From IMG/VR virus record IMGVR_UViG_2585427970_000004: a stretch of DNA of 41,455 nt. One strand, 5' to 3'. Positions 27,135 through 40,087 of this stretch are shown here, piece by piece. Under the pieces are notes generated by a model. It was not told where the DNA came from and did no database searches. It saw only the letters and a program-made list of their open reading frames with translations. This stretch comes from a virus. Taxonomy: Duplodnaviria > Heunggongvirae > Uroviricota > Caudoviricetes. Position 1 is the stretch's first letter; every line of letters begins with the position of its first letter. Position numbers and translations under genes: made by a program.

Positions 27135-27770
27135 TTACGGCACAAATGAATCTATAGCATCAAGCAACTCATTCACATTCGTATAACACCCAAGAAGAAA
27201 TGGTCTATTAGAATGAGGAGGAGCTGCATTTAAACTTTGTTTATTTAGTGCCTTCGCTCTTTGTCTGGCATAAGGAATACCAAGTCTAATTTTCTTATAC
27301 AACGTAGCATCGGCTTTATTATAATCCTTTATACCCACTGATAGTAAATCTTTTTTCAAAGTAGAGTTTTTCTTTAGATCATCAAAACTTGAGTAAGGTG
27401 TATTCTTAAATGCAAAGTGTTGTAAAATCCACAATTCAAAACAAACATTTGACAACGCAATATTAATATTGTTTGCATGGGCTAAATCCCATGCTTCATG
27501 GTGTAATGTGTGTGGGTATTTTGTGACAGCCTCTCTATCATATACAACCCAAAATTCATCATCATCCGATGTATCACCACTTTCCTTGTGTTTAATTGCA
27601 GCCTTTACTAAGGCTATTGGTGTGTTATATTTTATATCAGGGATATGTATAACTTTTGCTTTCTCACTAGCAAATTCATCGATATAACCCTGCAAGTACA
27701 TAGGTTCTGTTTTAGACCCTTCGCAAAAAATATGCATTCGTTTCTCTAATTTTCTCACGTTTTTTGCCAT
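27135..27770 (-). CDS. RloB-like (Toprim-like) protein, AbiLii-like
   Basis: 211 aa; N-terminal HIFCEGSKTEP and acidic FWVVYDRE motifs consistent with RloB/Toprim; AAGGTGA RBS; starts 6 nt after the ATPase stop; AT-rich. Confidence 0.65.
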   Translation of the reverse strand: MAKNVRKLEKRMHIFCEGSKTEPMYLQGYIDEFASEKAKVIHIPDIKYNTPIALVKAAIKHKESGDTSDDDEFWVVYDREAVTKYPHTLHHEAWDLAHANNINIALSNVCFELWILQHFAFKNTPYSSFDDLKKNSTLKKDLLSVGIKDYNKADATLYKKIRLGIPYARQRAKALNKQSLNAAPPHSNRPFLLGCYTNVNELLDAIDSFVP

Positions 27771-27776
27771 GATCTA

Positions 27777-29117
27777 TCACCTTAAATCTTCTGGAATATC
27801 ATCGATGTTACCAAATACTGTTAAATCAGTATCTTCAGGTTCACCACCTGTTACCCCAATGATAAAATCCTTTATTTTCATATAGTTAATTGATGGGACG
27901 CCACCAAAACGCCCTTCATCATACCACTTGTTAAAAGGTGAATTAGCCTTAACCTTTTCTTTATCAAACTCATCTAAACTATAAACTTCGGTTACACCTT
28001 TTTTCTTTTCAGTAAACCAAATCTGATCTCTTCTCATATTTTCTGATTTCATCAGCTCAATGTTATGAGTTGTAAATATGAGCTGAGAGCCTACTTTATT
28101 AACCTCACTATCGTTAAACAGTCTGATTAAAAGTGCAGCCAAATGTGGATGCATGCTGTGGTCTATTTCATCGATAATTAACACTCGATTTATTAAAAGA
28201 CCAGAAATTAGGGCAGGTGTTAATTCAAATAACCTACGGGTTCCTGCTGACTCATTTTCAATATCTATATCAGCACATTCTCCACCCTCCATGTCATGCT
28301 CAAATTTAAAGCTAAATCGATTTTCAGCCAAAATTCTTCGTTTCATATCTTCCGGCATTTCATCAGGTAGCTTAATATCTAGTTCTTTATTTTCGACAAT
28401 CCTTAGTTGGTTTATACCCGTATCAACCAATGATAAGAAGTTACCGGAAAAACGAATAAGCATGTCTCTAAATTTCTCATCCTCAAGATGAAGAGCATTA
28501 AAACTTGATTCCATTCCAATAGGACAAATTAACTGCGAAAAGTACTCATATACTTCCTTAGCAATCTCTGGAGCCTCAGCGACAGTGCCGATCTTTGATA
28601 GATAAGAGTTATTTTTAGAAAATGGAATTTTCTTTACTCCACCTTTGAATTGCGCCCCAAATTTAATATTCTCCCAACCATTATTCACACGATAGAACAA
28701 ATTCGATGGCTGCTTGGAGTAATAACAATCTAAACTCTCCAATATAATTTCTTTTTGAAGATAATGTATTTTATATTTAAATTTCAAATCATTGATCACA
28801 AAGTCAATTTCAAACTTTACTGGCTTTGAGATTGTTTTTTGACAAAGAGAATATGGTTCATAACAAGGGATATCCTCGCCATCTTTCAACGAAAAGCTAT
28901 CCTCAACAAGATAATTTAATGCAGAAAACACCTTTAGAAGGTTTGACTTCCCTGAAGCATTAGGACCATAAATTCCAACGGTACGTACAACCCGCTCATT
29001 GCTTTTGGGAAGAACAAGCAAATTATCGCTTAAGTGGTTACTTGTTGAACTACGCAGATCAAAGTTAACCTCTTCTTTGATCGACCTAAAATTCTCAACT
29101 TTTAAGGAAATTATCAT
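27777..29117 (-). CDS. ABC/AAA_21-type ATPase, AbiLi-like
   Basis: 446 aa; Walker A GPNASGKS (about aa 51-58), Walker B LIIDEID (about aa 313-319), TTHN H-loop-like motif; long helical insert between them as in OLD/AbiL-type ATPases; AT-rich. Confidence 0.7.
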   Translation of the reverse strand: MIISLKVENFRSIKEEVNFDLRSSTSNHLSDNLLVLPKSNERVVRTVGIYGPNASGKSNLLKVFSALNYLVEDSFSLKDGEDIPCYEPYSLCQKTISKPVKFEIDFVINDLKFKYKIHYLQKEIILESLDCYYSKQPSNLFYRVNNGWENIKFGAQFKGGVKKIPFSKNNSYLSKIGTVAEAPEIAKEVYEYFSQLICPIGMESSFNALHLEDEKFRDMLIRFSGNFLSLVDTGINQLRIVENKELDIKLPDEMPEDMKRRILAENRFSFKFEHDMEGGECADIDIENESAGTRRLFELTPALISGLLINRVLIIDEIDHSMHPHLAALLIRLFNDSEVNKVGSQLIFTTHNIELMKSENMRRDQIWFTEKKKGVTEVYSLDEFDKEKVKANSPFNKWYDEGRFGGVPSINYMKIKDFIIGVTGGEPEDTDLTVFGNIDDIPEDLR

Positions 29118-29473
29118 AAAACGATCCTCTAAAACGTACTTTTACAGTAAAAAAATGACAAAAAATGCCTAATCACGAGATTGTAATCTATAATAATATA
29201 CTTTTATACAACTATTTCTTGGTTTTGTACCCTTATAAGCACAAGAAGAATGCAATCATCATATTGAGTTACTACAAGAGCTGGACTGCCCCCTTCCGGA
29301 AGACGATCTTGCCCGATAGTTTCTTCCCTCCACTCCCACGGGTCTACGCCAGTTGGGCATCCTGAAAACTCCCGACAATCTCGATGGTTTCCAGCGCTGC
29401 TATGGGGTCGTTCATGATAATTATATTAAGTTTGACCAAAAACTGACTTCACCTTCAGAAGGAGCGCAGTTAA

Positions 29474-29674
29474 TCAAATCGATAATTTCTTCAGGTGTCT
29501 CTTTAACGTCGATATACTCGCCAGAGGATATTTCAGAGTTGTAATACCATGCAGAGTCATGATAACGATATGCCCTACGGCAACAAACACAGGCTCGAAG
29601 ACTGTTTCAGGTTCCCAGCCATATTTCCCCTGACGCTCAATCGTCGCTTGCTGGCTCAATTTGATGATTTTCAT
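29474..29674 (-). CDS. Hypothetical protein downstream of ren
   Basis: 66-aa ORF, start overlapping the ren stop; no assignable family. Confidence 0.3.
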   Translation of the reverse strand: MKIIKLSQQATIERQGKYGWEPETVFEPVFVAVGHIVIMTLHGITTLKYPLASISTLKRHLKKLSI

Positions 29675-29964
29675 GTCTTAGCTCTCCCATATACCGCCAA
29701 TACCCGTTTCATCGCGGCACTCTGGCGACACTCCTTAAAAATCAGATTCGTGCTCACCTTTCCTTCCCGTTCTTCTCTGGTAGCGAACCGGTAATACACC
29801 GTTCGCCAGACCTTACCATCAACGACCAGGATTCCTGCCCGCGCCATTTTAGCCGCAGCCTGATTTATGCTGGTTACGGTTGCGCCTGTTACCGCGGCAA
29901 CGTCCTGCGCACAGAAGTTCTTATGAGTCCCCAGGTAATGAATAATTGCCTCTTTGCCCGTCAT
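29671..29964 (-). CDS. ren: Ren-like protein
   Basis: 97 aa; MTGKEAIIHYLGTHKNFCAQDVAAVTGATVTSINQAAAKMARAG… recalled as lambda Ren-like; overlaps the P stop. Confidence 0.8.
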   Translation of the reverse strand: MTGKEAIIHYLGTHKNFCAQDVAAVTGATVTSINQAAAKMARAGILVVDGKVWRTVYYRFATREEREGKVSTNLIFKECRQSAAMKRVLAVYGRAKT

Positions 29965-30662
29965 ACACTTACTCCTTTCAGCCCAAACTTAGCTTTGATT
30001 TCTGCGATCTTCGCCAGAGCCTGTGCACGATTTAGAGGTCTACCGCCCATGACAGGAAGTTGTTTTACTGGTTCAGGTATAGCCTCACCACGGTTAATTC
30101 GTGCGGCCATACAGGACAGTTCATCGGCAGCCTTGCGCCGTAATTCCGCGTCAGTCAACGCATTGGCCCGCATGTTCTGATACAGGTTGGTAACCAGCCA
30201 GTAGTGCGCGTTTGATTTCCACGGATAAGACTCTGCATCCGGATACAGGCCACGCTTCCGGCAATACTCGTAAACCATATCAACCAGCTCGCTGACGTTT
30301 GGCAGCCCGGCGTTAACAGATGCTTCTTCCCGGCACCAGGCGACAAACTGCCCGGGTGATGGCAGGAATGGTCGATTCTGCCGACGGGCTACGCGCATTC
30401 CAGCGTTAACCTGTTCCATTGTGGTGATCCCGTTTTCCCGGAAAGCCAGAACCCACTGGCGGCGGATTTCGTTCAGTTCATTCTGGTCACGGTTAGCCAG
30501 GCTCGCCGGGAAAGTTGCCAGTAACTGGCTGAACACACCGTTGATGATCTGCGCTACCTGCTGTACCTGCGGCTTTTCGTCGTACTGTTCCGGCATATTG
30601 TTGGCGATCCGGCGCATCTGCTCACGGTCAAAGTTAACCATCTGTGCGGCGATGTTTTTCAT
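29961..30662 (-). CDS. P: Replication protein P (DnaB helicase loader), lambda-type
   Basis: 233 aa; MKNIAAQMVNFDREQMRRIANNMPEQYDEKPQVQQVAQIINGVF… recalled as near-identical to lambda P. Confidence 0.9.
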   Translation of the reverse strand: MKNIAAQMVNFDREQMRRIANNMPEQYDEKPQVQQVAQIINGVFSQLLATFPASLANRDQNELNEIRRQWVLAFRENGITTMEQVNAGMRVARRQNRPFLPSPGQFVAWCREEASVNAGLPNVSELVDMVYEYCRKRGLYPDAESYPWKSNAHYWLVTNLYQNMRANALTDAELRRKAADELSCMAARINRGEAIPEPVKQLPVMGGRPLNRAQALAKIAEIKAKFGLKGVSV

Positions 30663-31588
30663 AAATCCACCCCGTAAATCCAGTCAGTGTTCGTCAGGTC
30701 GAGTTTTGGTTTGCCGGCTGTCACGCCAGCCTGTTGCTTGTTTCGGTTGATTTCGAGCTGGGTCCACTTGTCGCGGAGTTTGGCCGGACTCAGCACGTTA
30801 CCGGACCAGAAGTTGTCCTGGCATGCCCAGCGGAACAGCACGCACATGTCGCGGTGGTTACGTCCGTCACGTTCACGCATCAGGCGGATATCGTTAGCCC
30901 ACCCTGCAAAATTCGGTTTTCTGGCTGATGGCGCGATGGTCTTCACCATGTCAAACATCCACTCTGCGGCGGTCAGGTCTTCTGCTGTCCCCCACTTGCT
31001 GCCACTCTGAATTGCAGCATCCGGTTTCACCACAGGAAGGTCGTTTTCTGGCTGGTCAGAGGATTCGCCAGAATTCTCGGACGAAAAAGGTTTTATATTG
31101 TCTTTTGTTAGTTTGTCTTTTGTGTTTACCTGATTCGGGTAAACGCCTTTACCTGTTTTGGGTAAACTTTTCTTACCTGATTCAGGTAAATTTACCTCTT
31201 TCAGGTAAACTTTATTTTTCTTACCTGATTCGGGTAATGTTGACCATTCACTGACCACATTATTAATGCCGATATTCCGCCCGCTCTGAATAAGAATCCC
31301 ACGCTTTACCAGAACGCTTTTTGCAGCAGAACACTTGTGCGGCAATATCCCGGTCAATTCGGAAAGTTGCTCGTTGCTCACCCAATCCAGTTTTTTATTA
31401 AAGCCATATGTTTTGCGCATGACAGCCAGGAAGACCAGAAGCTGGTGCTGTGTTAATCCGGCCAGCATCACAGCTTCCAGCAACTCATTTGCAATGCGCG
31501 TATAACCATCATCGAGATCTGCCACGCGCGGCTCCTTTTGTGCCGCATCCGGCACTGGAAAATTGAATATCTCAGCAGTGTTTGCCAT
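30659..31588 (-). CDS. O: Replication initiator O-like protein (lambda O-type N-terminus, divergent C-terminus)
   Basis: Start refined to ATG 31588 (GGGAGG RBS; MANTAEIFNFPV…ADLDDGY…LRKTYGFNK resembles the lambda O N-terminus); iterons lie inside the gene. Confidence 0.8.
   Translation of the reverse strand: MANTAEIFNFPVPDAAQKEPRVADLDDGYTRIANELLEAVMLAGLTQHQLLVFLAVMRKTYGFNKKLDWVSNEQLSELTGILPHKCSAAKSVLVKRGILIQSGRNIGINNVVSEWSTLPESGKKNKVYLKEVNLPESGKKSLPKTGKGVYPNQVNTKDKLTKDNIKPFSSENSGESSDQPENDLPVVKPDAAIQSGSKWGTAEDLTAAEWMFDMVKTIAPSARKPNFAGWANDIRLMRERDGRNHRDMCVLFRWACQDNFWSGNVLSPAKLRDKWTQLEINRNKQQAGVTAGKPKLDLTNTDWIYGVDL
31125..31237. repeat. Replication origin iterons (five palindromic repeats) inside the O gene, next to an AT-rich tract (about 31080..31124)
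   Basis: Five copies of TTTACCTGATTCGGGTAAA-like palindromes at 31125, 31148, 31172, 31191 and 31219; encode the repeated LPESGKK peptide in O. Confidence 0.75.
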
Positions 31589-31674
31589 AATTCCTCCCGC
31601 AATGAGTGTGTTACGATTTGCACCTGAAAGTCGGTTCTGTTCCAGCAGACCGGCTTTCGCCATTTCTGAACCTG

Positions 31675-32220
31675 TCATATCGCCCCCAGCATGGTAGTAA
31701 CCATCGCCATCAATGGACCAGCCAGATCCGGGTCCACACGAAACATCGACACAATACCTTCACTAATTTCCTTCAGTTTCTGGTGGCGTGGTGCGTTGAG
31801 AATGACCGCCTGCTTTGCCTCACAGAGTTCCTTTTCCATTTCAGCCAGCCGAGCCATGAAGCTATCCTGCTCAACCAGGTGGCCGCGATATTCCAGCGGT
31901 AGTACCGCCAGAATTGCCGGGGTCAGTTCACGCACGTTATTTCGGTATTTTTCAGAATCGAATTTGTTATCGAGGAAGCGGAACAGCTTCTGGCGTGCAC
32001 GGCTGACATCATCAGGGAAATCGATGGTGCCGCCGCCCTGCTCCCGATACTCATTCACAATGAGTGCGGCAACAACATCCTGATTATCTGCAGCCGACCA
32101 GGCGCGAACGGCATCACGGATTTTTTCGTGGCCTGGCGCCTGTTTTGTTTGAGAACGATTTATCACCGCCGTCGGGCTAAATCCGCTAGTCTGTTGGTAT
32201 GTAAGTGATTGCATAGTCAT
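31675..32220 (-). CDS. CII-position regulatory protein (YdaT-like)
   Basis: 181 aa; between cro-like and O; stop overlaps the track-predicted O start; family guess by position and weak recall. Confidence 0.4.
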   Translation of the reverse strand: MTMQSLTYQQTSGFSPTAVINRSQTKQAPGHEKIRDAVRAWSAADNQDVVAALIVNEYREQGGGTIDFPDDVSRARQKLFRFLDNKFDSEKYRNNVRELTPAILAVLPLEYRGHLVEQDSFMARLAEMEKELCEAKQAVILNAPRHQKLKEISEGIVSMFRVDPDLAGPLMAMVTTMLGAI

Positions 32221-32244
32221 TGCCTTATCAGTTAACGCCGCAGT

Positions 32245-32472
32245 TTAGGCGGCAGAATTACTCGCGTTAAACAATGGTGCGAGGTCGGGACGAATATCTG
32301 CTGGTTTAATCTTTCCACCAGTGGCTGAGACAATTTTCATTACATAGCGGGCATCAATTCCGCCACCGTGTAGCCAACGCCAAACAGTGGGTTGGGCTAC
32401 ACCGCATAGATCTGCCAGTCGTTTTTGACTACCTGTAATACTAATTGCGAGTTGAATGGTTTGATTTGTCAT
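32245..32472 (-). CDS. Cro-like HTH regulator (YdaS/Cro family)
   Basis: Start refined to ATG 32472 (AGGA RBS); HTH segment SQKRLADLCGVAQPTVWRW; divergent from cI. Confidence 0.6.
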   Translation of the reverse strand: MTNQTIQLAISITGSQKRLADLCGVAQPTVWRWLHGGGIDARYVMKIVSATGGKIKPADIRPDLAPLFNASNSAA

Positions 32473-32503
32473 TATCAATTCCTATTGGTATTGCAATGAA
32501 TAG

Positions 32504-32532
32504 ATAATAGCAATGCGTATTAACTCAATCAA
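32504..32532 (-). promoter_or_regulatory. PR-like sigma70 promoter for the cro-like operon
   Basis: Minus strand -35 TTGATT (32527..32532), 17-bp spacer, -10 TATTAT (32504..32509); operator-like AATAGCAAT motif in the spacer. Confidence 0.55.
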
Positions 32533-32546
32533 TAGCAAAACGTGTT

Positions 32547-32575
32547 TTGACCATCAATACGCAAGCGTATAAATT
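32547..32575 (+). promoter_or_regulatory. PRM-like promoter for cI; transcript predicted leaderless
   Basis: -35 TTGACC (32547..32552), 17-bp spacer, -10 TAAATT (32570..32575), ending about 7 nt before the cI ATG at 32583, which has no SD. Confidence 0.45.
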
Positions 32576-32582
32576 AAAACTT

Positions 32583-33275
32583 ATGAAAAAAGAAACTCTT
32601 GCTGATCGCTTAAACCTAGCGATGGAACAATCTGGAATGTCTCAAGGCGCTCTTGCAAAGGCGTCTGGCGTAGCTCAACCCACAATCTGGAGACTGACAA
32701 GCGGCAACGCGCGTGGCTCAACAAAAATTGTTGAAATAGCTAATGCATTGGGTGTTCGAACAGAGTGGCTCTCATCAGGCATAGGCCCGATGAGAAATGA
32801 CGGTCAACAATCAGGAAAGCCTGCTGTCAACCATTCCAAATACTTCAAGATTGACGTTCTTGATATAGAAGTGAGTGCCGGGCCGGGAGTCATCAACCGT
32901 GAGTTTGTAGAAGTTCTACGCTCGGTTGAGTACTCGTTTGACGATGCTCGTCACATGTTCGATGGTAGGAAGGCAGAAAATATCCGCATCATTAACGTGC
33001 GTGGTGACAGCATGTCAGGAACGATCGAACCAGGTGATCTGCTGTTCGTTGATATCACGGTTAAATCTTTCGACGGTGATGGTATCTATGCGTTTCTGTA
33101 CGACGACACAGCCCATGTAAAGCGCCTGCAAATGATGAAGGATAAGCTGCTGGTTATCTCTGATAACAAGAGCTACTCACCGTGGGACCCGATCGAGAAA
33201 GACGAGATGAACCGGGTGTTTATCTTCGGGAAAGTTATTGGGAGCATGCCGCAGACGTACAGGAAGCATGGGTAA
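32583..33275 (+). CDS. cI: CI-like repressor (HTH_XRE plus S24 LexA-like peptidase domain)
   Basis: Start refined to ATG 32583 (MKKETLADRLNLAMEQSGMSQGALAKASGVAQPTIWRL…); C-terminal GDSMSGTIEPGDLLFVD…HVKRL autocleavage-type motifs (Ser…Lys); track start is TTG. Confidence 0.85.
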   Translation: MKKETLADRLNLAMEQSGMSQGALAKASGVAQPTIWRLTSGNARGSTKIVEIANALGVRTEWLSSGIGPMRNDGQQSGKPAVNHSKYFKIDVLDIEVSAGPGVINREFVEVLRSVEYSFDDARHMFDGRKAENIRIINVRGDSMSGTIEPGDLLFVDITVKSFDGDGIYAFLYDDTAHVKRLQMMKDKLLVISDNKSYSPWDPIEKDEMNRVFIFGKVIGSMPQTYRKHG

Positions 33276-33320
33276 AAATGGAATTTATGAAACTTTAAAT
33301 TAATCAAATATTGAGTTTAT

Positions 33321-33740
33321 ATGATGCAACATAATATTCATAGTGATTATTTCAAGTGGTGGTGTGGAACGGTAATCATTGGAGCAATCCCTATCTTTAT
33401 TAGATTTATTGCTTATTTCATCACTAATAAAAATATAGAGATGATCAATATAACTGAGTTGATATGTTTTGGCTTTGCCATACAAATATCCAGCATCTAT
33501 TACGGAATGGGCCAACCTAGTAAGCAAACTGAAAACAATATTATTTTAAATACTACTATATCGATTGTTTTCATTGTGATTTTTTCTATAATTTACATTA
33601 TTGTCATGCTGGCTGATAACATCCTTAACATGAATACGACTCGCATATTAGTCGCTATTACTTGTGGTATATCCTTATACATTGGACAAAATTCGGTCAG
33701 GTGTGCTATTATCAATAACAAATTAGCAGCGCAGGAGTAA
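33321..33740 (+). CDS. Small integral membrane protein (4 predicted TM helices), first gene of the cassette in the rexAB-equivalent slot
   Basis: 139 aa; four hydrophobic segments; very AT-rich; immediately downstream of cI. Confidence 0.55.
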   Translation: MMQHNIHSDYFKWWCGTVIIGAIPIFIRFIAYFITNKNIEMINITELICFGFAIQISSIYYGMGQPSKQTENNIILNTTISIVFIVIFSIIYIIVMLADNILNMNTTRILVAITCGISLYIGQNSVRCAIINNKLAAQE

Positions 33741-33743
33741 ATT

Positions 33744-33920
33744 ATGGAGTTCTTAATTACTATTTTATCCATAATAGCTGTTGTGATACCTGCTGTATTG
33801 GCATGGTTTTCAAGAAAAAACCTCAAAAATGCACAGGAAACTTTAATTCACATAGAAAGGATCAGAAAATCAAACAGCGATGACTTTGAAAGAAAGAAAG
33901 AACAACTTAAATATCACTAA
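33744..33920 (+). CDS. Small single-TM protein (58 aa), below the ORF-track threshold
   Basis: AGGAG RBS 6 nt upstream of ATG 33744; MEFLITILSIIAVVIPAVLAWFSRKNLKNAQETLIHIERIRKSNSDDFERKKEQLKYH. Confidence 0.4.
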   Translation: MEFLITILSIIAVVIPAVLAWFSRKNLKNAQETLIHIERIRKSNSDDFERKKEQLKYH

Positions 33921-34830
33921 TGGAATTGGTATGCAGTTAAAAAATATCATTTATATTGATTATGAGAAGGTCTACTCTTTAAGCTCTCAATTATTTGAGG
34001 GCGTAATTCAATCCGCGATGGAGCATAAAGAGTCTACTCTTTCAAATATAGATGCAGTCGAAATTAAGACAAAAAGTAGTTCAAGTAAAACGAGTGACAC
34101 AAAAAAATTATCAACAGTGTTAAACCCTCATGATTACCATTATCTGAAATTTGAAAACGAACTTAGCAATAGAGGAATTCTATCTAACATAACTTCCCCG
34201 ATCGACTCGAACAAAATTAAGGCTAATTGCTTTGTTAAAATCACCTGCCCTATTCAATTTAATGACTATAGTAAATTAAAAAATACCGCGAAGGATTTTT
34301 GTAAAATTCACTATGCTATTAATTTCGTTCATCGAAATGGTGAATTAGAAAACCTAGAATCGATGCTGAAATCGATAAAACCCAAATCCAATGAATTTAA
34401 TATTATCAAGGCAAGACAAGCACAAATCAAAAGTGAGCTTGATAATTTAACTTCTCCAAATAAGAAAAAGTTTCTTGAGCATCTGTCTTCTGTTTTAGAT
34501 TACGCATATGGTGACGAAATAGAAATATCACAAAAAATGCAAGATATTAAATTCACCTCATTCTTAATCAGAGATTTTCTTAAAATCAGCCCAGAAATGT
34601 TTGTAAAGTTATATTCTCGTCGAACGACCTCTGCATTCACTGTCGTAGGGATGATAACGCGTACATCAACGTCTGAAGGCGATCAGGAATCAGAGGCTCG
34701 TGAACTAAGCGGCATTCGCAGTGCGGTCTGGAATATGAATGACAGCCTTTTTGATCTGGAGTCAACATTTTGTGCCCCTGACTCTGATGAATATTTCATT
34801 GAGCCTATTGCTGTTTACAATGAGCTATAA
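33880..34830 (+). CDS. Hypothetical soluble protein (~300-316 aa), third gene of the rex-slot cassette
   Basis: ORF from ATG 33880 overlaps the 58-aa ORF by 41 nt; alternative start ATG 33931 lies 10 nt after that ORF's stop; no motif I can assign; AT-rich; followed by a terminator. Confidence 0.55.
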   Translation: MTLKERKNNLNITNGIGMQLKNIIYIDYEKVYSLSSQLFEGVIQSAMEHKESTLSNIDAVEIKTKSSSSKTSDTKKLSTVLNPHDYHYLKFENELSNRGILSNITSPIDSNKIKANCFVKITCPIQFNDYSKLKNTAKDFCKIHYAINFVHRNGELENLESMLKSIKPKSNEFNIIKARQAQIKSELDNLTSPNKKKFLEHLSSVLDYAYGDEIEISQKMQDIKFTSFLIRDFLKISPEMFVKLYSRRTTSAFTVVGMITRTSTSEGDQESEARELSGIRSAVWNMNDSLFDLESTFCAPDSDEYFIEPIAVYNEL

Positions 34831-34835
34831 AAACA

Positions 34836-34863
34836 ACCCGGCCACTGCGCCGGGTTTTCTTTT
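34836..34863 (+). terminator. Rho-independent terminator after the rex-slot cassette
   Basis: ACCCGGC-CACTGC-GCCGGGT followed by TTTTCTTTT, 6 nt after the stop at 34830. Confidence 0.65.
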
Positions 34864-35004
34864 GCCCTCCCCTCATCACACAAACCGTTCGAAAAACCAC
34901 CACAACCTCGCTTCAGTTACCGCTATGCGATGCAAGTCACAAAATTAATTCTTTTTGCTATCAAACAGTTAATATCAAAACACATCAATCAATAGCAATA
35001 AGTA

Positions 35005-35033
35005 TTGATATCACCAATAGCAATAGCTATTAT
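35005..35033 (+). promoter_or_regulatory. PL-like sigma70 promoter with operator-like repeats (OL)
   Basis: -35 TTGATA (35005..35010), 17-bp spacer, -10 TATTAT (35028..35033); upstream TCAATCAATAGCAA (34985..34998) identical to the OR copy at 32525..32538. Confidence 0.55.
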
Positions 35034-35106
35034 CACCATGTCGCAACAACACAACGATACGGCAACCACCTGATTCACCGTTGCGATGACCGCTTAGATC
35101 CGCAGC

Positions 35107-35517
35107 TTGAATTTCAGCAGGCTACGGGAAGTGCGAGGGGTGAAGCGGACGCGTGAACGTCGGTGTGACCAGCTGAAATCAACTCAACACTTCATACCTC
35201 AGTCGCTTCAACGAGGCGGCTTAGTTATGACAACCGGCGGCCATCCACCGCCTGAATACGCGCAGAAGTCTTTATATGTTCAGCAGCCCAGCTTACGGGC
35301 AGGAGCTTTTATGGTTCATCAACATTACGGAACGCAGACCGTTAATCGCGGTGCGGTCATGCCAGGAATGCTGGTCAAACACAAAGATGGTACCTGGACA
35401 GCATCAGCTAATTTACGCGGACGGCTATATCTGCATCGCGGCATCGAGCGCACTTATACCCGTGATTTGCTCGTGGAAGTTTTTCTCGACGGACGCGGTA
35501 ACGGCCTCAATCACTAA
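35107..35517 (+). CDS. Hypothetical ORF in the N/kil position; probably a 69-aa product from ATG 35311
   Basis: Long open frame with no ATG before 35227; ATG 35311 has AGGAG RBS 5 nt upstream ([32 protein letters not shown]…); upstream segment encodes an arginine-rich stretch (KRTRERR). Confidence 0.3.
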
Positions 35518-35592
35518 TCCCCTTTCCTGTTTTCCTAATCAGCCTGGCATTTCGCGGGCGATATTTTCACAGCCATTTTCAGGAGTTCAGCC

Positions 35593-35889
35593 ATGAACGC
35601 TTATTACATTCAGGATCGTCTTGAGGCTCAGAGCTGGGCGCGTCACTACCAGCAGATCGCCCGTGAAGAGAAAGAGGCAGAACTGGCAGACGACCTGGAA
35701 AAGGGTCTGCCCCAGCATTTGTTTGAATCGCTCTGCATCGATCATTTGCAACGTCACGGGGCCAGCAAAAAAGCCATTACCCGTGTGTTTGATGACGATG
35801 TTGAGTTTCAGGAGCGCATGGCAGAACACATCCGGTACATGGTTGAAACCATTGCTCACCACCAGGTTGATATAGATTCAGAGGTATAA
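35593..35889 (+). CDS. gam: Gam (RecBCD inhibitor), short GamS-type form
   Basis: 98 aa; [34 protein letters not shown]…HQVDIDSEV recalled as near-identical to the lambda Gam C-terminal 98 aa; AGGAG RBS; in-frame stop at 35536..35538. Confidence 0.9.
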
Positions 35890-35894
35890 AACGG

Positions 35895-36680
35895 ATGAGT
35901 ACAGCACTCGCAACGCTGGCTGGGAAGCTGGCTGAACGTGTCGGCATGGATTCTGTCGACCCACAGGAACTGATCACCACTCTTCGCCAGACAGCATTTA
36001 AAGGTGATGCCAGCGATGCGCAGTTCATCGCATTGCTGATCGTCGCCAACCAGTACGGCCTTAATCCGTGGACGAAAGAAATTTACGCCTTCCCTGATAA
36101 GCAGAACGGCATCGTTCCGGTGGTGGGCGTTGATGGCTGGTCCCGCATCATCAATGAAAACCAGCAGTTTGATGGTATGGACTTTGAACAGGACAACGAA
36201 TCCTGCACATGCCGGATTTACCGCAAAGACCGCAATCATCCGATCTGCGTTACCGAGTGGATGGATGAATGCCGCCGCGAACCATTCAAAACCCGCGAAG
36301 GCAGAGAAATTACGGGGCCGTGGCAGTCGCATCCCAAACGGATGTTACGGCATAAAGCCATGATTCAGTGTGCCCGTCTGGCCTTCGGATTTGCGGGTAT
36401 CTATGACAAGGATGAAGCCGAGCGCATTGTCGAAAATACCGCATACACTGCAGAACGTCAGCCGGAACGCGACATCACTCCGGTTAACGATGAAACCATG
36501 CAGGAGATTAACACTCTGCTGATTGCCCTGGACAAAACATGGGATGACGACTTATTGCCGCTCTGTTCCCAGATATTTCGCCGCGACATTCGCGCATCGT
36601 CAGAACTGACACAGGCCGAAGCAGTGAAAGCTCTTGGATTCCTGAAACAGAAAGCCTCTGAACAGAAGGTGGCTGCATGA
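35895..36680 (+). CDS. bet: Bet (Red-beta single-strand annealing protein)
   Basis: 261 aa; [66 protein letters not shown]… recalled as near-identical to lambda Bet. Confidence 0.95.
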
Positions 36681-37357
36681 CACCGGACATTATCCTGCAG
36701 CGTACCGGGATCGACGTGAGAGCTGTCGAACAGGGGGATGATGCGTGGCACAAATTACGGCTCGGCGTCATCACCGCTTCAGAAGTTCACAATGTGATAG
36801 CAAAACCCCGCTCCGGAAAGAAATGGCCTGACATGAAAATGTCCTACTTACACACCCTGCTTGCCGAGGTTTGCACCGGTGTGGCTCCGGAAGTTAACGC
36901 TAAGGCGCTGGCCTGGGGAAAACAGTACGAGAACGACGCCAGAGCCCTCTTTGAGTTCACTTCCGGCGTGAATGTTACTGAATCCCCGATCATCTATCGC
37001 GACGAAAGTATGCGCACCGCCTGCTCTCCCGATGGTTTATGCAGTGACGGCAATGGCCTTGAGCTGAAATGCCCGTTTACCTCCCGGGATTTCATGAAGT
37101 TCCGGCTCGGTGGTTTCGAGGCCATAAAGTCGGCTTACATGGCCCAGGTGCAGTACAGCATGTGGGTGACGCGAAAAGATGCCTGGTACTTTGCCAACTA
37201 TGACCCGCGCATGAAGCGTGAAGGCCTGCATTATGTCGTGGTTGAGCGGGATGAAAAGTACATGGCGAATTTTGACGAGATGGTGCCGGAGTTCATCGAA
37301 AAAATGGACGAGGCACTGGCTGAAATTGGTTTTGTATTTGGGGAGCAATGGCGATGA
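36677..37357 (+). CDS. exo: Exo (lambda 5'-3' exonuclease)
   Basis: 226 aa; [44 protein letters not shown]… recalled as near-identical to lambda Exo. Confidence 0.95.
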
Positions 37358-38635: not shown

Positions 38636-38957
38636 GGCCTGTCAGTTTCTTAAGATATCCAGACCAACCGCCACCAACTGGATACGAACAGGCCGCCTAC
38701 AGGCAACACGTAAAGATCCAACCAAGCCAAAATCTCCTTACCTCACAACACGGCAAGCCTGCATTGCGGCGCTTCAGTCTCCGCTGCATACTGTCCAGGT
38801 GAGCGCGGGTGATGGCATAACAGAGGAAAGAAAATGTCACTCTTCCGCAGAAGTGAAATATGGTACGCCAGTTTCACATTGCCGAACGGTAAAAGATTTA
38901 AACAGTCTCTTGGAACAAAGGACAAAAGGCAGGCGACAGAGCTCCATGACAAGCTAA
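38607..38957 (+). CDS. Excisionase-like HTH protein
   Basis: ATG 38607 with GAGGT RBS; [34 protein letters not shown]; immediately upstream of and overlapping int. Confidence 0.5.
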
Positions 38958-39997
38958 AGGCTGAAGCATGGCGGGTCAGCAAACTTGGTGAAATACCTGA
39001 TATAACGTTCGAGGAAGCGTGTGTCAGGTGGCTTGAAGAGAAAGCACATAAAAAATCACTGGACGATGACAAAAGCCGGATCGGATTCTGGCTTCAACAT
39101 TTCGCAGGAATGCAACTAAGAGACATTACTGAATCAAAAATTTATTCAGCAATGCAGAAAATGACGAACCGGCGTCATGAGGAAAACTGGAGACTCAGGG
39201 CAGAAGCATGCAGAAAAAAAGGGAAACCTGTTCCAGAATACACGCCAAAACCAGCGTCCGTTGCAACGAAGGCTACGCATCTTTCATTTATAAAGGCCCT
39301 ACTAAGAGCCGCAGAGCGTGAATGGAAAATGCTGGATAAGGCACCAATTATTAAAGTGCCTCAACCAAAGAATAAACGGATCCGCTGGCTGGAGCCCCAT
39401 GAAGCACAAAGGCTGATTGATGAATGTCCGGAGCCATTAAAGTCTGTTGTTGAATTTGCACTGGCAACAGGCTTAAGACGCTCGAACATCATCAACCTTG
39501 AATGGCAACAAATAGACATGCAGCGCCGGGTGGCATGGATAAACCCGGAAGAGAGTAAATCAAACCGCGCAATTGGCGTTGCGCTGAATGATACTGCATG
39601 TCGCGTTTTGAAAAAACAAATCGGGAATCATCACCGTTGGGTATTTGTGTACAAGGAAAGCTGTACCAAACCAGACGGAACGAAAGCGCCAACAGTAAGG
39701 AAGATGCGGTATGACGCAAACACAGCCTGGAAAGCGGCGCTGAGACGGGCTGGTATTGATGATTTCAGATTTCACGACTTGAGACACACCTGGGCAAGTT
39801 GGCTGGTTCAAGCCGGAGTCCCGTTGTCAGTGTTACAGGAAATGGGAGGCTGGGAGTCTATCGAAATGGTTCGTCGATATGCTCACCTTGCACCTAATCA
39901 CCTTACCGAACACGCACGGCAAATAGACTCGATCCTGAACCCATCGGTCCCAAATTCGTCCCAGTCAAAAAATAAGGAAGGTACTAATGATGTGTAA
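38834..39997 (+). CDS. int: Tyrosine integrase (tRNA-Thr site-specific, IntF-like)
   Basis: 387 aa; C-terminal catalytic motifs (…[42 protein letters not shown]…); ends 15 nt before the tRNA 3' end. Confidence 0.9.
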
Positions 39998-40011
39998 CTT
40001 ATTGATTTAAA

Positions 40012-40087
40012 TGGTGCCGATAATAGGAGTCGAACCTACGACCTTCGCATTACGAATGCGCTGCTCTACCAACTGAGCTATATCGGC
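40012..40087 (-). tRNA. thrW: tRNA-Thr (anticodon CGU), thrW-like; prophage integration target
   Basis: rc = GCCGATATAGCTCAGTTGGTAGAGCAGCGCATTCGTAATGCGAAGGTCGTAGGTTCGACTCCTATTATCGGCACCA; cloverleaf with anticodon loop TTCGTAA, TPsiC-loop TTCGACT, 3' CCA. Confidence 0.9.

Follow-up and report, generated by a model that had tools for sequence, protein, structure and literature searches.

The short AT-rich stretch that lies ahead of kil, gam, bet and exo in this prophage raises the question of whether it is the left operator and promoter (OL/PL) of the phage and whether one repressor governs both it and the right operator (OR) between cro and cI. We examined it within the window, that is, the whole 41,455-nucleotide stretch of DNA that was analysed (IMG/VR record IMGVR_UViG_2585427970_000004), a lambdoid prophage whose immunity region runs the opposite way round from that on the standard lambda map. 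A repressor carrying HTH and S24 domains adjoins a divergently transcribed cro (Pfam), and the N-terminal domain of CI matched the 434 repressor by sequence (E = 1.6e-5). The genes and gene-sized features surrounding the two control regions were as follows:

30659-31678, minus strand: O
31675-32220, minus strand: YdaT-type CII analogue
32245-32472, minus strand: cro, YdaS-type HTH, 75 aa (Pfam)
32583-33275, plus strand: cI repressor, 230 aa (Pfam HTH_3 and Peptidase_S24)
33321-34856, plus strand: cargo region (139-aa ORF, DUF6414 protein and two-way terminator)
33321-33740, plus strand: cargo ORF, 139 aa, no family match
33880-34830, plus strand: DUF6414 protein, 316 aa (Pfam)
34835-34856: two-way terminator
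35042-37357, plus strand: PL operon with a conserved leader of ~185 nt
35227-35517, plus strand: kil
35593-35889, plus strand: gam
35895-36680, plus strand: bet
36677-37357, plus strand: exo
38834-39997: integrase
40012-40087: tRNA-Thr (CGT)

The position of the integrase beside tRNA-Thr (38834-40087) probably marks the prophage attachment site, and repeated 14-18-mers of the CCCGAATCAGGTAAGAAA type inside O (31126-31237) are probably lambda-type origin iterons. An Rfam ALIL pseudoknot, the frameshift element of IS3-family insertion sequences, was detected on the minus strand at 2173-2289 (116 bits); thus, an insertion sequence lies at the far end of the window.

An earlier note on this DNA had reported an exact 14-mer, TCAATCAATAGCAA, shared by the two control regions, and we recovered exact copies at 32525-32538 and 34985-34998 with no third copy in the window at up to 2 mismatches; the PL spacer also contained another AATAGCAAT (35016) as well as the palindrome AATAGCTATT (35022-35031). 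One such repeat is not rare, as the 41-kb window contained 34 repeated 14-mers compared with ~6 in shuffles, whereas a shared word of at least 14 nt between the two ~110-bp control regions arose in 0 of 5000 shuffles. The core 8-mer, AATAGCAA, occurred five times in the window, four of them within the two control regions and on the same strand. Because the 5-nt TCAAT flank of the 14-mer was not kept in the closest relatives, PhiR30_1 and 4A7, the conserved unit is an 18-bp operator rather than the 14-mer itself. This operator is a near-palindrome, yAATAsCwA/TwGsTATTr, and it recurs within a 49-nt direct repeat (71% identical) that aligns 32506-32554 with 34991-35039, with the operator pairs lying 25 bp apart in both regions. 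The shared motif of the operator set first described was therefore retained and its 14-mer unit replaced by the 18-bp near-palindrome, and the sites outnumbered those originally noted:

34985-34998, plus strand: left copy of the 14-mer, an exact match comprising the 5-nt flank and the left half of OL2
32525-32538, plus strand: OR copy of the 14-mer, comprising the reverse complement of the PR -35 hexamer and the left half of OR2
34990-35007, plus strand: OL2, CAATAGCAATAAGTATTG; training site, ranked first (asymmetric) and second (symmetrised)
35015-35032, plus strand: OL1, CAATAGCAATAGCTATTA; training site, ranked second (asymmetric) and first (symmetrised)
34970-34987, plus strand: degenerate OL3-like site, TAATATCAAAACACATCA; weak (7.2 bits), 20 bp from OL2
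34946-34963, minus strand: distal operator-like site, TGATAGCAAAAAGAATTA as read on the minus strand; 16.2 bits asymmetric, 10.0 bits symmetrised
32505-32522, plus strand: OR1, TAATAGCAATGCGTATTA; spans the PR spacer and -10 hexamer, kept in the Klebsiella phage and BTP1
32530-32547, plus strand: OR2, CAATAGCAAAACGTGTTT; shares 3 nt with the PR -35 hexamer and adjoins that of PRM
32555-32572, plus strand: weak OR3, CAATACGCAAGCGTATAA; within PRM, over its spacer and -10 hexamer, 11.3 bits symmetrised
32476-32493, minus strand: extra operator-like site; 18.1 / 19.8 bits, best non-training match in the window

The scores derive from a weight matrix trained on OR1, OR2, OL1 and OL2 and applied in asymmetric and symmetrised versions to both strands of the whole window (83,000 positions), and the ranks of OL1, OL2, OR1 and OR2 are accordingly those of training sites. 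In the search for the operator consensus that had been set beforehand as a check, the top two non-training matches of the asymmetric scan were 32476-32493 and 34946-34963, one in each control region, so that repeated, partly symmetric operators flank the repressor gene at 32476-32572 and 34946-35032. OL2 is kept in phages of the same immunity, and its last 3 nt (TTG) form the start of the PL -35 hexamer; OL1 occupies the PL spacer, its outer end coincides with the -10 hexamer, and it stands 25 bp from OL2 just as OR1 stands from OR2. The OR2 sequence is identical in BTP1 and the Klebsiella phage. Taken on their scores alone, 34970-34987, OR3 and, with the symmetrised matrix, 34946-34963 were at or below chance level. 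OR3, at chance level by score, lies exactly 25 bp from OR2 and is conserved, with a counterpart of 13-14 bits ~24 bp from OR2 in more distant relatives, and the position of 34970-34987 is occupied by a strong site in Klebsiella phages and by a moderate one in BTP1. The distal site, which was the second-best non-training match in the asymmetric scan and at chance level (10.0 bits) in the symmetrised one, is situated within the immunity-specific cassette 44 bp upstream of OL2, and a AAATTCnTTTnGCTATCAA-like element is retained in most divergent OL cassettes. The extra site at 32476-32493 covers the cro ribosome-binding site, downstream of where PR is predicted to start, and most relatives keep it at position -107 relative to the cI start.

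Three promoters were predicted in and around these operators:

35005-35033, plus strand: PL (predicted), TTGATA-17-TATTAT; from the promoter scan, with a start placed near 35040
32504-32532, minus strand: PR (predicted), extended TG, TTGATT (32532-27)-17-TATTAT (32509-04), directed toward cro, with a start placed near 32497
32547-32575, plus strand: PRM (predicted), TTGACC (32547-52)-17-TAAATT (32570-75), with a start placed near 32582-3

The near-consensus promoter proposed for the left region was present at 35005-35033 on the plus strand, agreed with the consensus at 10 of 12 positions and pointed toward kil-gam-bet-exo, genes for which there was no other obvious promoter. A scan of 32200-35700 returned 9 promoter-like sites against 9.7 expected, with no enrichment in the AT-rich stretch, and because promoter-like sites thus equal the shuffle expectation, the PL match alone is not significant and draws its support from position and conservation: TTGnnn-17-TATTnT was interwoven with the operators in all eight of the eight OL cassette variants read by eye. 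A leftward promoter starting from TTGATT at 34992-34987 was rejected by eye, its -10 hexamer being ACTGTT. On the right, PR stands to OR1 and OR2 as the mirror image of the geometry of PL and OL1/OL2 (consensus matches only), and PRM adjoins OR2 and contains OR3. The cI ATG at 32583 is preceded by no Shine-Dalgarno sequence and the predicted PRM start falls at or beside it, which suggests that the cI message is leaderless or nearly so. The deposited cI of PhiR30_1 (L001 3348-4076) starts at a TTG 36 nt upstream of this ATG, within both OR2 and the PRM -35 hexamer; the ATG start in the 4A7 record is a better fit to the promoter map.

That one repressor specificity serves both regions, as the note had proposed, was borne out by natural exchanges in which the OL motif co-varied with the CI N-terminal domain, Cro and OR. 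Ten phages share the same cI-cro-OR and the same OL (97% identity) and differ in cargo; changes of the OL motif tracked neither cargo nor flanking DNA. In alignments A1 and A4, sequences on either side of one short segment were nearly identical in 5-6 phages, while the segment itself was replaced in PhiR5_1, PhiR47_2 and NADC1036:

34946-35041, no strand assigned: immunity-specific OL/PL cassette, ~96 bp

PhiR5_1 and PhiR47_2 share with the window the terminator, the PL leader with kil, gam, bet and exo, a YdaT-like protein (97% identical) and a CI C-terminal domain that shows no differences across the alignment; they differ from it in the CI N-terminal domain, Cro (48% identical), OR and exactly 34946-35041. 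Their own OR and replacement OL cassette share a different motif, AAAACAAC/ACAACC, and the window's operator matrix found nothing convincing in either phage (the highest scores, 10.6-11.0 bits, fell outside OR and OL). E. coli NADC1036 carries DUF6414 cargo that is ~95% identical to that of the window, yet it has a CI N-terminal domain, OR and OL cassette of the PhiR5_1 type; thus, the OL cassette follows the DNA-binding domain of the repressor and not its neighbours. The CI recognition helix, AQPTIWR, was kept in every relative with this motif, among them Klebsiella phage ST11-VIM1phi8.2, Salmonella BTP1 and E. coli phage SaltyDalty, and reads SQAAIQK in PhiR5_1. The Cro recognition helix (VAQPTVWRW) is close to that of CI (VAQPTIWRL), a near identity in keeping with the lambdoid rule of operators common to the two proteins. 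Since CI and Cro always swap together, these comparisons cannot assign sites to CI, to Cro or to both.

The same motif was found well beyond the closest relatives. Klebsiella phage ST11-VIM1phi8.2 and Salmonella BTP1 carry it at OR with the 25-bp spacing and also at OL, where the surrounding DNA was unmatched by megablast, and the BTP1 OL promoter reads TTGATA-17-TATTGT. A scan of IMG/VR for AATAGCAA-N17-AATAGCAA yielded 120 loci, 85 of them with a homologue of the CI N-terminal domain (56-100% identical); in 83 of these 85 the match fell between cro and cI, ~45-80 nt before the cI start, and in the other two the exact pattern was fitted by the OL pair alone. Among the 57 loci that extend 3300 nt or more past the cI start, a second cluster, defined as at least 2 sites 15-60 bp apart, was present 600-3300 nt downstream of the cI start in 54, compared with 0 of 50 loci for an equal-sized control interval on the cro side. 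Pooled over the IMG/VR loci, the half-site was again yAATAsCwA; its A3, T4 and A5 are invariant. Four IMG/VR loci (L079, L087, L031 and L092) combine a 100% identical CI N-terminal domain with an unrelated OL cassette ~2670 nt after the cI start, in which the operators are inverted (CAATACTAATTGCTATTG, CAATAGCCATTGCTATTG) and the promoter reads TTGACT-17-TATTGT; site orientation thus appears not to be important. When genome contigs were scanned for AATAGCAA-N17-AATAGCAA, the matches listed all came from AT-rich or otherwise unrelated genomes, almost every one with a single match, and were uninformative on taxonomic spread.

We consider it highly probable (about 90%) that 34946-35033 is the OL/PL region of a lambdoid prophage whose switch would follow the lambda model with different operators, a reading derived from sequence comparison. 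The competing notion that the shared 14-mer and repeats are a chance likeness of two AT-rich intergenic stretches with no common binding protein draws on the abundance of repeated 14-mers in the window, the variable TCAAT flank and the lack of enrichment in the promoter scan; it is scarcely credible given the shuffles of the control regions, the left-out sites that ranked first and second outside the training sites in the window, the return of the motif at both OR and OL in distant phages, and the clusters found beyond cI but not on the cro side. A protein other than CI or Cro, such as the YdaT-like CII analogue or a host factor of the IHF or Fis kind, is a highly improbable binder. YdaT proteins bind TTGATT-N6-AATCAA (PMC9986795), of which AATCAA forms part of the 14-mer, but neither copy of the 14-mer carries a full YdaT-type site, the sole copy with 1 mismatch near the control regions lying at 32461-32478, and the YdaT-like protein was ruled out as the binder because it stays the same (97% identical) between phages of different immunity type with entirely different OL and OR motifs. 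The case for IHF comes from TATCAAACAGTTA at 34959-34971, inside the distal OL element, which appears to fit the IHF consensus, WATCAANNNNTTR; this match was retained in only about half of the cassette variants read by eye, however, and a host factor would leave the exchange of the cassette with immunity type unexplained.

It is also very unlikely that the left sites are used by Cro alone, with CI acting otherwise, or that they form an auxiliary cluster for looping to OR with no promoter of their own. The constant co-variation of CI and Cro makes the two inseparable by comparison, and lambda OL has a looping role too, but the sites overlap a good promoter-like match in the geometry seen at PR, that geometry was retained in every cassette variant read by eye, the mosaic boundary at 35041/35042 coincides with the predicted PL start, and kil-gam-bet-exo would otherwise be left with no obvious promoter.

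Under the OL/PL reading, dimers of CI would bind the 18-bp near-palindromic operators, and, with adjacent operators 25 bp apart, binding is probably cooperative. Occupancy of OL1 and OL2 would cover the spacer, -10 and -35 hexamers of PL and keep kil-gam-bet-exo off in the lysogen, while CI at OR1 and OR2 would turn off PR and cro. From OR2, beside the PRM -35 hexamer, CI would probably activate its own leaderless transcript, the centre of OR2 lying ~44 nt upstream of the predicted PRM start (~42 nt in lambda), and at the weak OR3 inside PRM it would exert negative autoregulation. Cro, with almost the same recognition helix, would probably use the same sites during lytic growth. The sites, their placement on promoter-like hexamers and their co-variation with the DNA-binding parts of CI and Cro are observed, whereas binding, repression, cooperativity, PRM activation and looping, together with promoter activity and start sites, are predicted.

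This arrangement resembles lambda in having several operators on either side of cI, with operator 1 in the spacer and -10 hexamer and operator 2 at the -35 hexamer, OR2 abutting PRM, OR3 inside PRM and cI apparently leaderless; in the spacing of neighbouring operators (~24-25 bp) and of OL from OR (~2.5 kb); and in the presence of accessory genes between cI and OL (rexAB in lambda) and of kil-gam-bet-exo after PL. It is unlike lambda in that the window's operators are 18 bp long and of another sequence, the CI N-terminal domain is 434/P22-like, Cro is of the YdaS type and the CII analogue of the YdaT type, neither an N gene nor a nut site could be recognised behind PL, and there are two further sites, an extra one downstream of where PR is predicted to start and a distal one 44 bp upstream of OL2. 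With P22 c2 and 434 it shares a near-palindromic operator with conserved outer bases and a variable centre, and P22 operators are also 18 bp long; the half-site yAATAsCwA, however, is neither ACAA (434) nor the P22 consensus, and the 434 operator is 14 bp. The immunity region of the P22-like Salmonella phages BTP1, ST104 and SE1 encodes a CI whose N-terminal domain is 76% identical to that of the window. BTP1 has an identical OR2, the 25-bp spacing, the same motif at OL and a defence gene (bstA) in the same slot, and unlike the window it has an N gene, a lambda-type CII and a different virion and replication backbone. We predict that the BTP1/ST104/SE1 group belongs to the same operator specificity class.

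CP-933P (PaaR2/YdaS/YdaT) likewise combines a CI-like repressor, a YdaS-type Cro, a YdaT-type CII analogue and accessory genes after the repressor, but its repressor and operators are different, and the YdaT site was mapped there to the end of ydaS and not to OL or OR (PMC9986795). In the window, TTGATTTGTCATTATCAA at 32461-32478, 1 mismatch from TTGATT-N6-AATCAA, straddles the cro start codon and overlaps the 32476-32493 site; the CII analogue may bind there. Many lambdoid repressor specificities are still unknown according to a recent survey (PMC12315714), and a literature search covering the BTP1 operators, the motif and the set of phages with GevT/GevA returned no paper that describes these operators or maps those of BTP1. 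The OL/PL arrangement is a textbook one with a binding-site sequence not found described in the literature.

The PL leader (35042-35226, ~185 nt), which begins at the cassette boundary, was nearly identical in phages of both immunity types, and related phages had nothing annotated between OL and kil. No N-family gene was found directly after PL (ORF 35107-35517 had no Pfam match, and ORF 35131-35517 matched Kil, PHROG 294, only), nor was a nut site recognised there. Rfam searches of the whole window at the gathering threshold and of 34800-35650 at E-values up to 5 gave nothing relevant at OL or the leader, at the sequence level neither the PL leader nor the PR side shared more than chance words with HK022 27500-32500 (put region), and the fold of 35040-35240 was not exceptional (z = -1.4). 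Terminator-like hairpins at 35460-76 and 35542-59 lie on the route from PL to gam-bet-exo-int, along which there is no N gene.

A hairpin, AGTCGCTTC-AAC-GAGGCGGCT, is located at 35195-35229, immediately ahead of the conserved ATG at 35227 (MTTGGHPP...), and may be a translational control element for kil. In phi80 a homologous segment directly follows the N gene, and Klebsiella phage KO-TP1 has one too, in which changes on both sides preserve the stem (read by eye); in phi80 and KO-TP1 a terminator precedes the hairpin, and this terminator is missing in the window. The frame 35131-35226, which continues into kil, begins with an arginine-rich stretch of 13 residues. This start of ORF 35131-35517 recalls the RNA-binding motif of lambda N, but an N-like role was unsupported, as only residues 53-128 match a family (Kil). 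The segment 35131-35226 has no family match, homology with the more distant phi80 and KO-TP1 begins only at 35191, and the segment is probably non-coding.

The note's placement of a cassette in the rex slot, between cI and OL, held as well: the cargo occupies 33321-34830, and the content of the slot differs among otherwise near-identical phages, with HipA/HipD, GevT/GevA, an ASCH-domain protein, DUF4411, DUF6932 or bstA in relatives and DUF6414 in the window. Because the distance from the cI start to the promoter-proximal OL site spans 874-3014 nt among the IMG/VR loci, the slot can be empty or filled. A variable slot at this place is genuine and was known before: the interval from cI to the left operon is a mosaic hotspot, occupied by rexAB in lambda and by the defence gene bstA in BTP1 (PMC8585504). 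Both cargo proteins were without PADLOC hits or a match to a described defence family (Pfam: DUF6414 only), and a promoter-like site of their own is present at 33683-33712. The 139-aa ORF and DUF6414 protein are a candidate for an uncharacterised defence or exclusion system.

A more elaborate version, in which the switch would differ from lambda both in having four sites per side and in carrying an RNA-based control element in the PL leader, seems to us rather doubtful. If it were true, the sites at 32476-32493 and 34946-34963 could together give a more extensive looped complex for repression or act as an additional roadblock, and the N-less PL leader could hold an RNA-based element, as yet undescribed, for antitermination or translational control of kil-gam-bet-exo.

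The understanding of phage regulation is unchanged by these results, since the design is that of lambda with a different binding-site sequence. What they yield is a predicted operator consensus and promoter map for an immunity group that extends over E. coli lambda-like, Klebsiella and Salmonella P22-like (BTP1) phages, which can be used to annotate such prophages to forecast which of them are mutually immune, and to help fix the right-hand edge of the accessory-gene slot that holds candidate defence genes such as the DUF6414 cassette.
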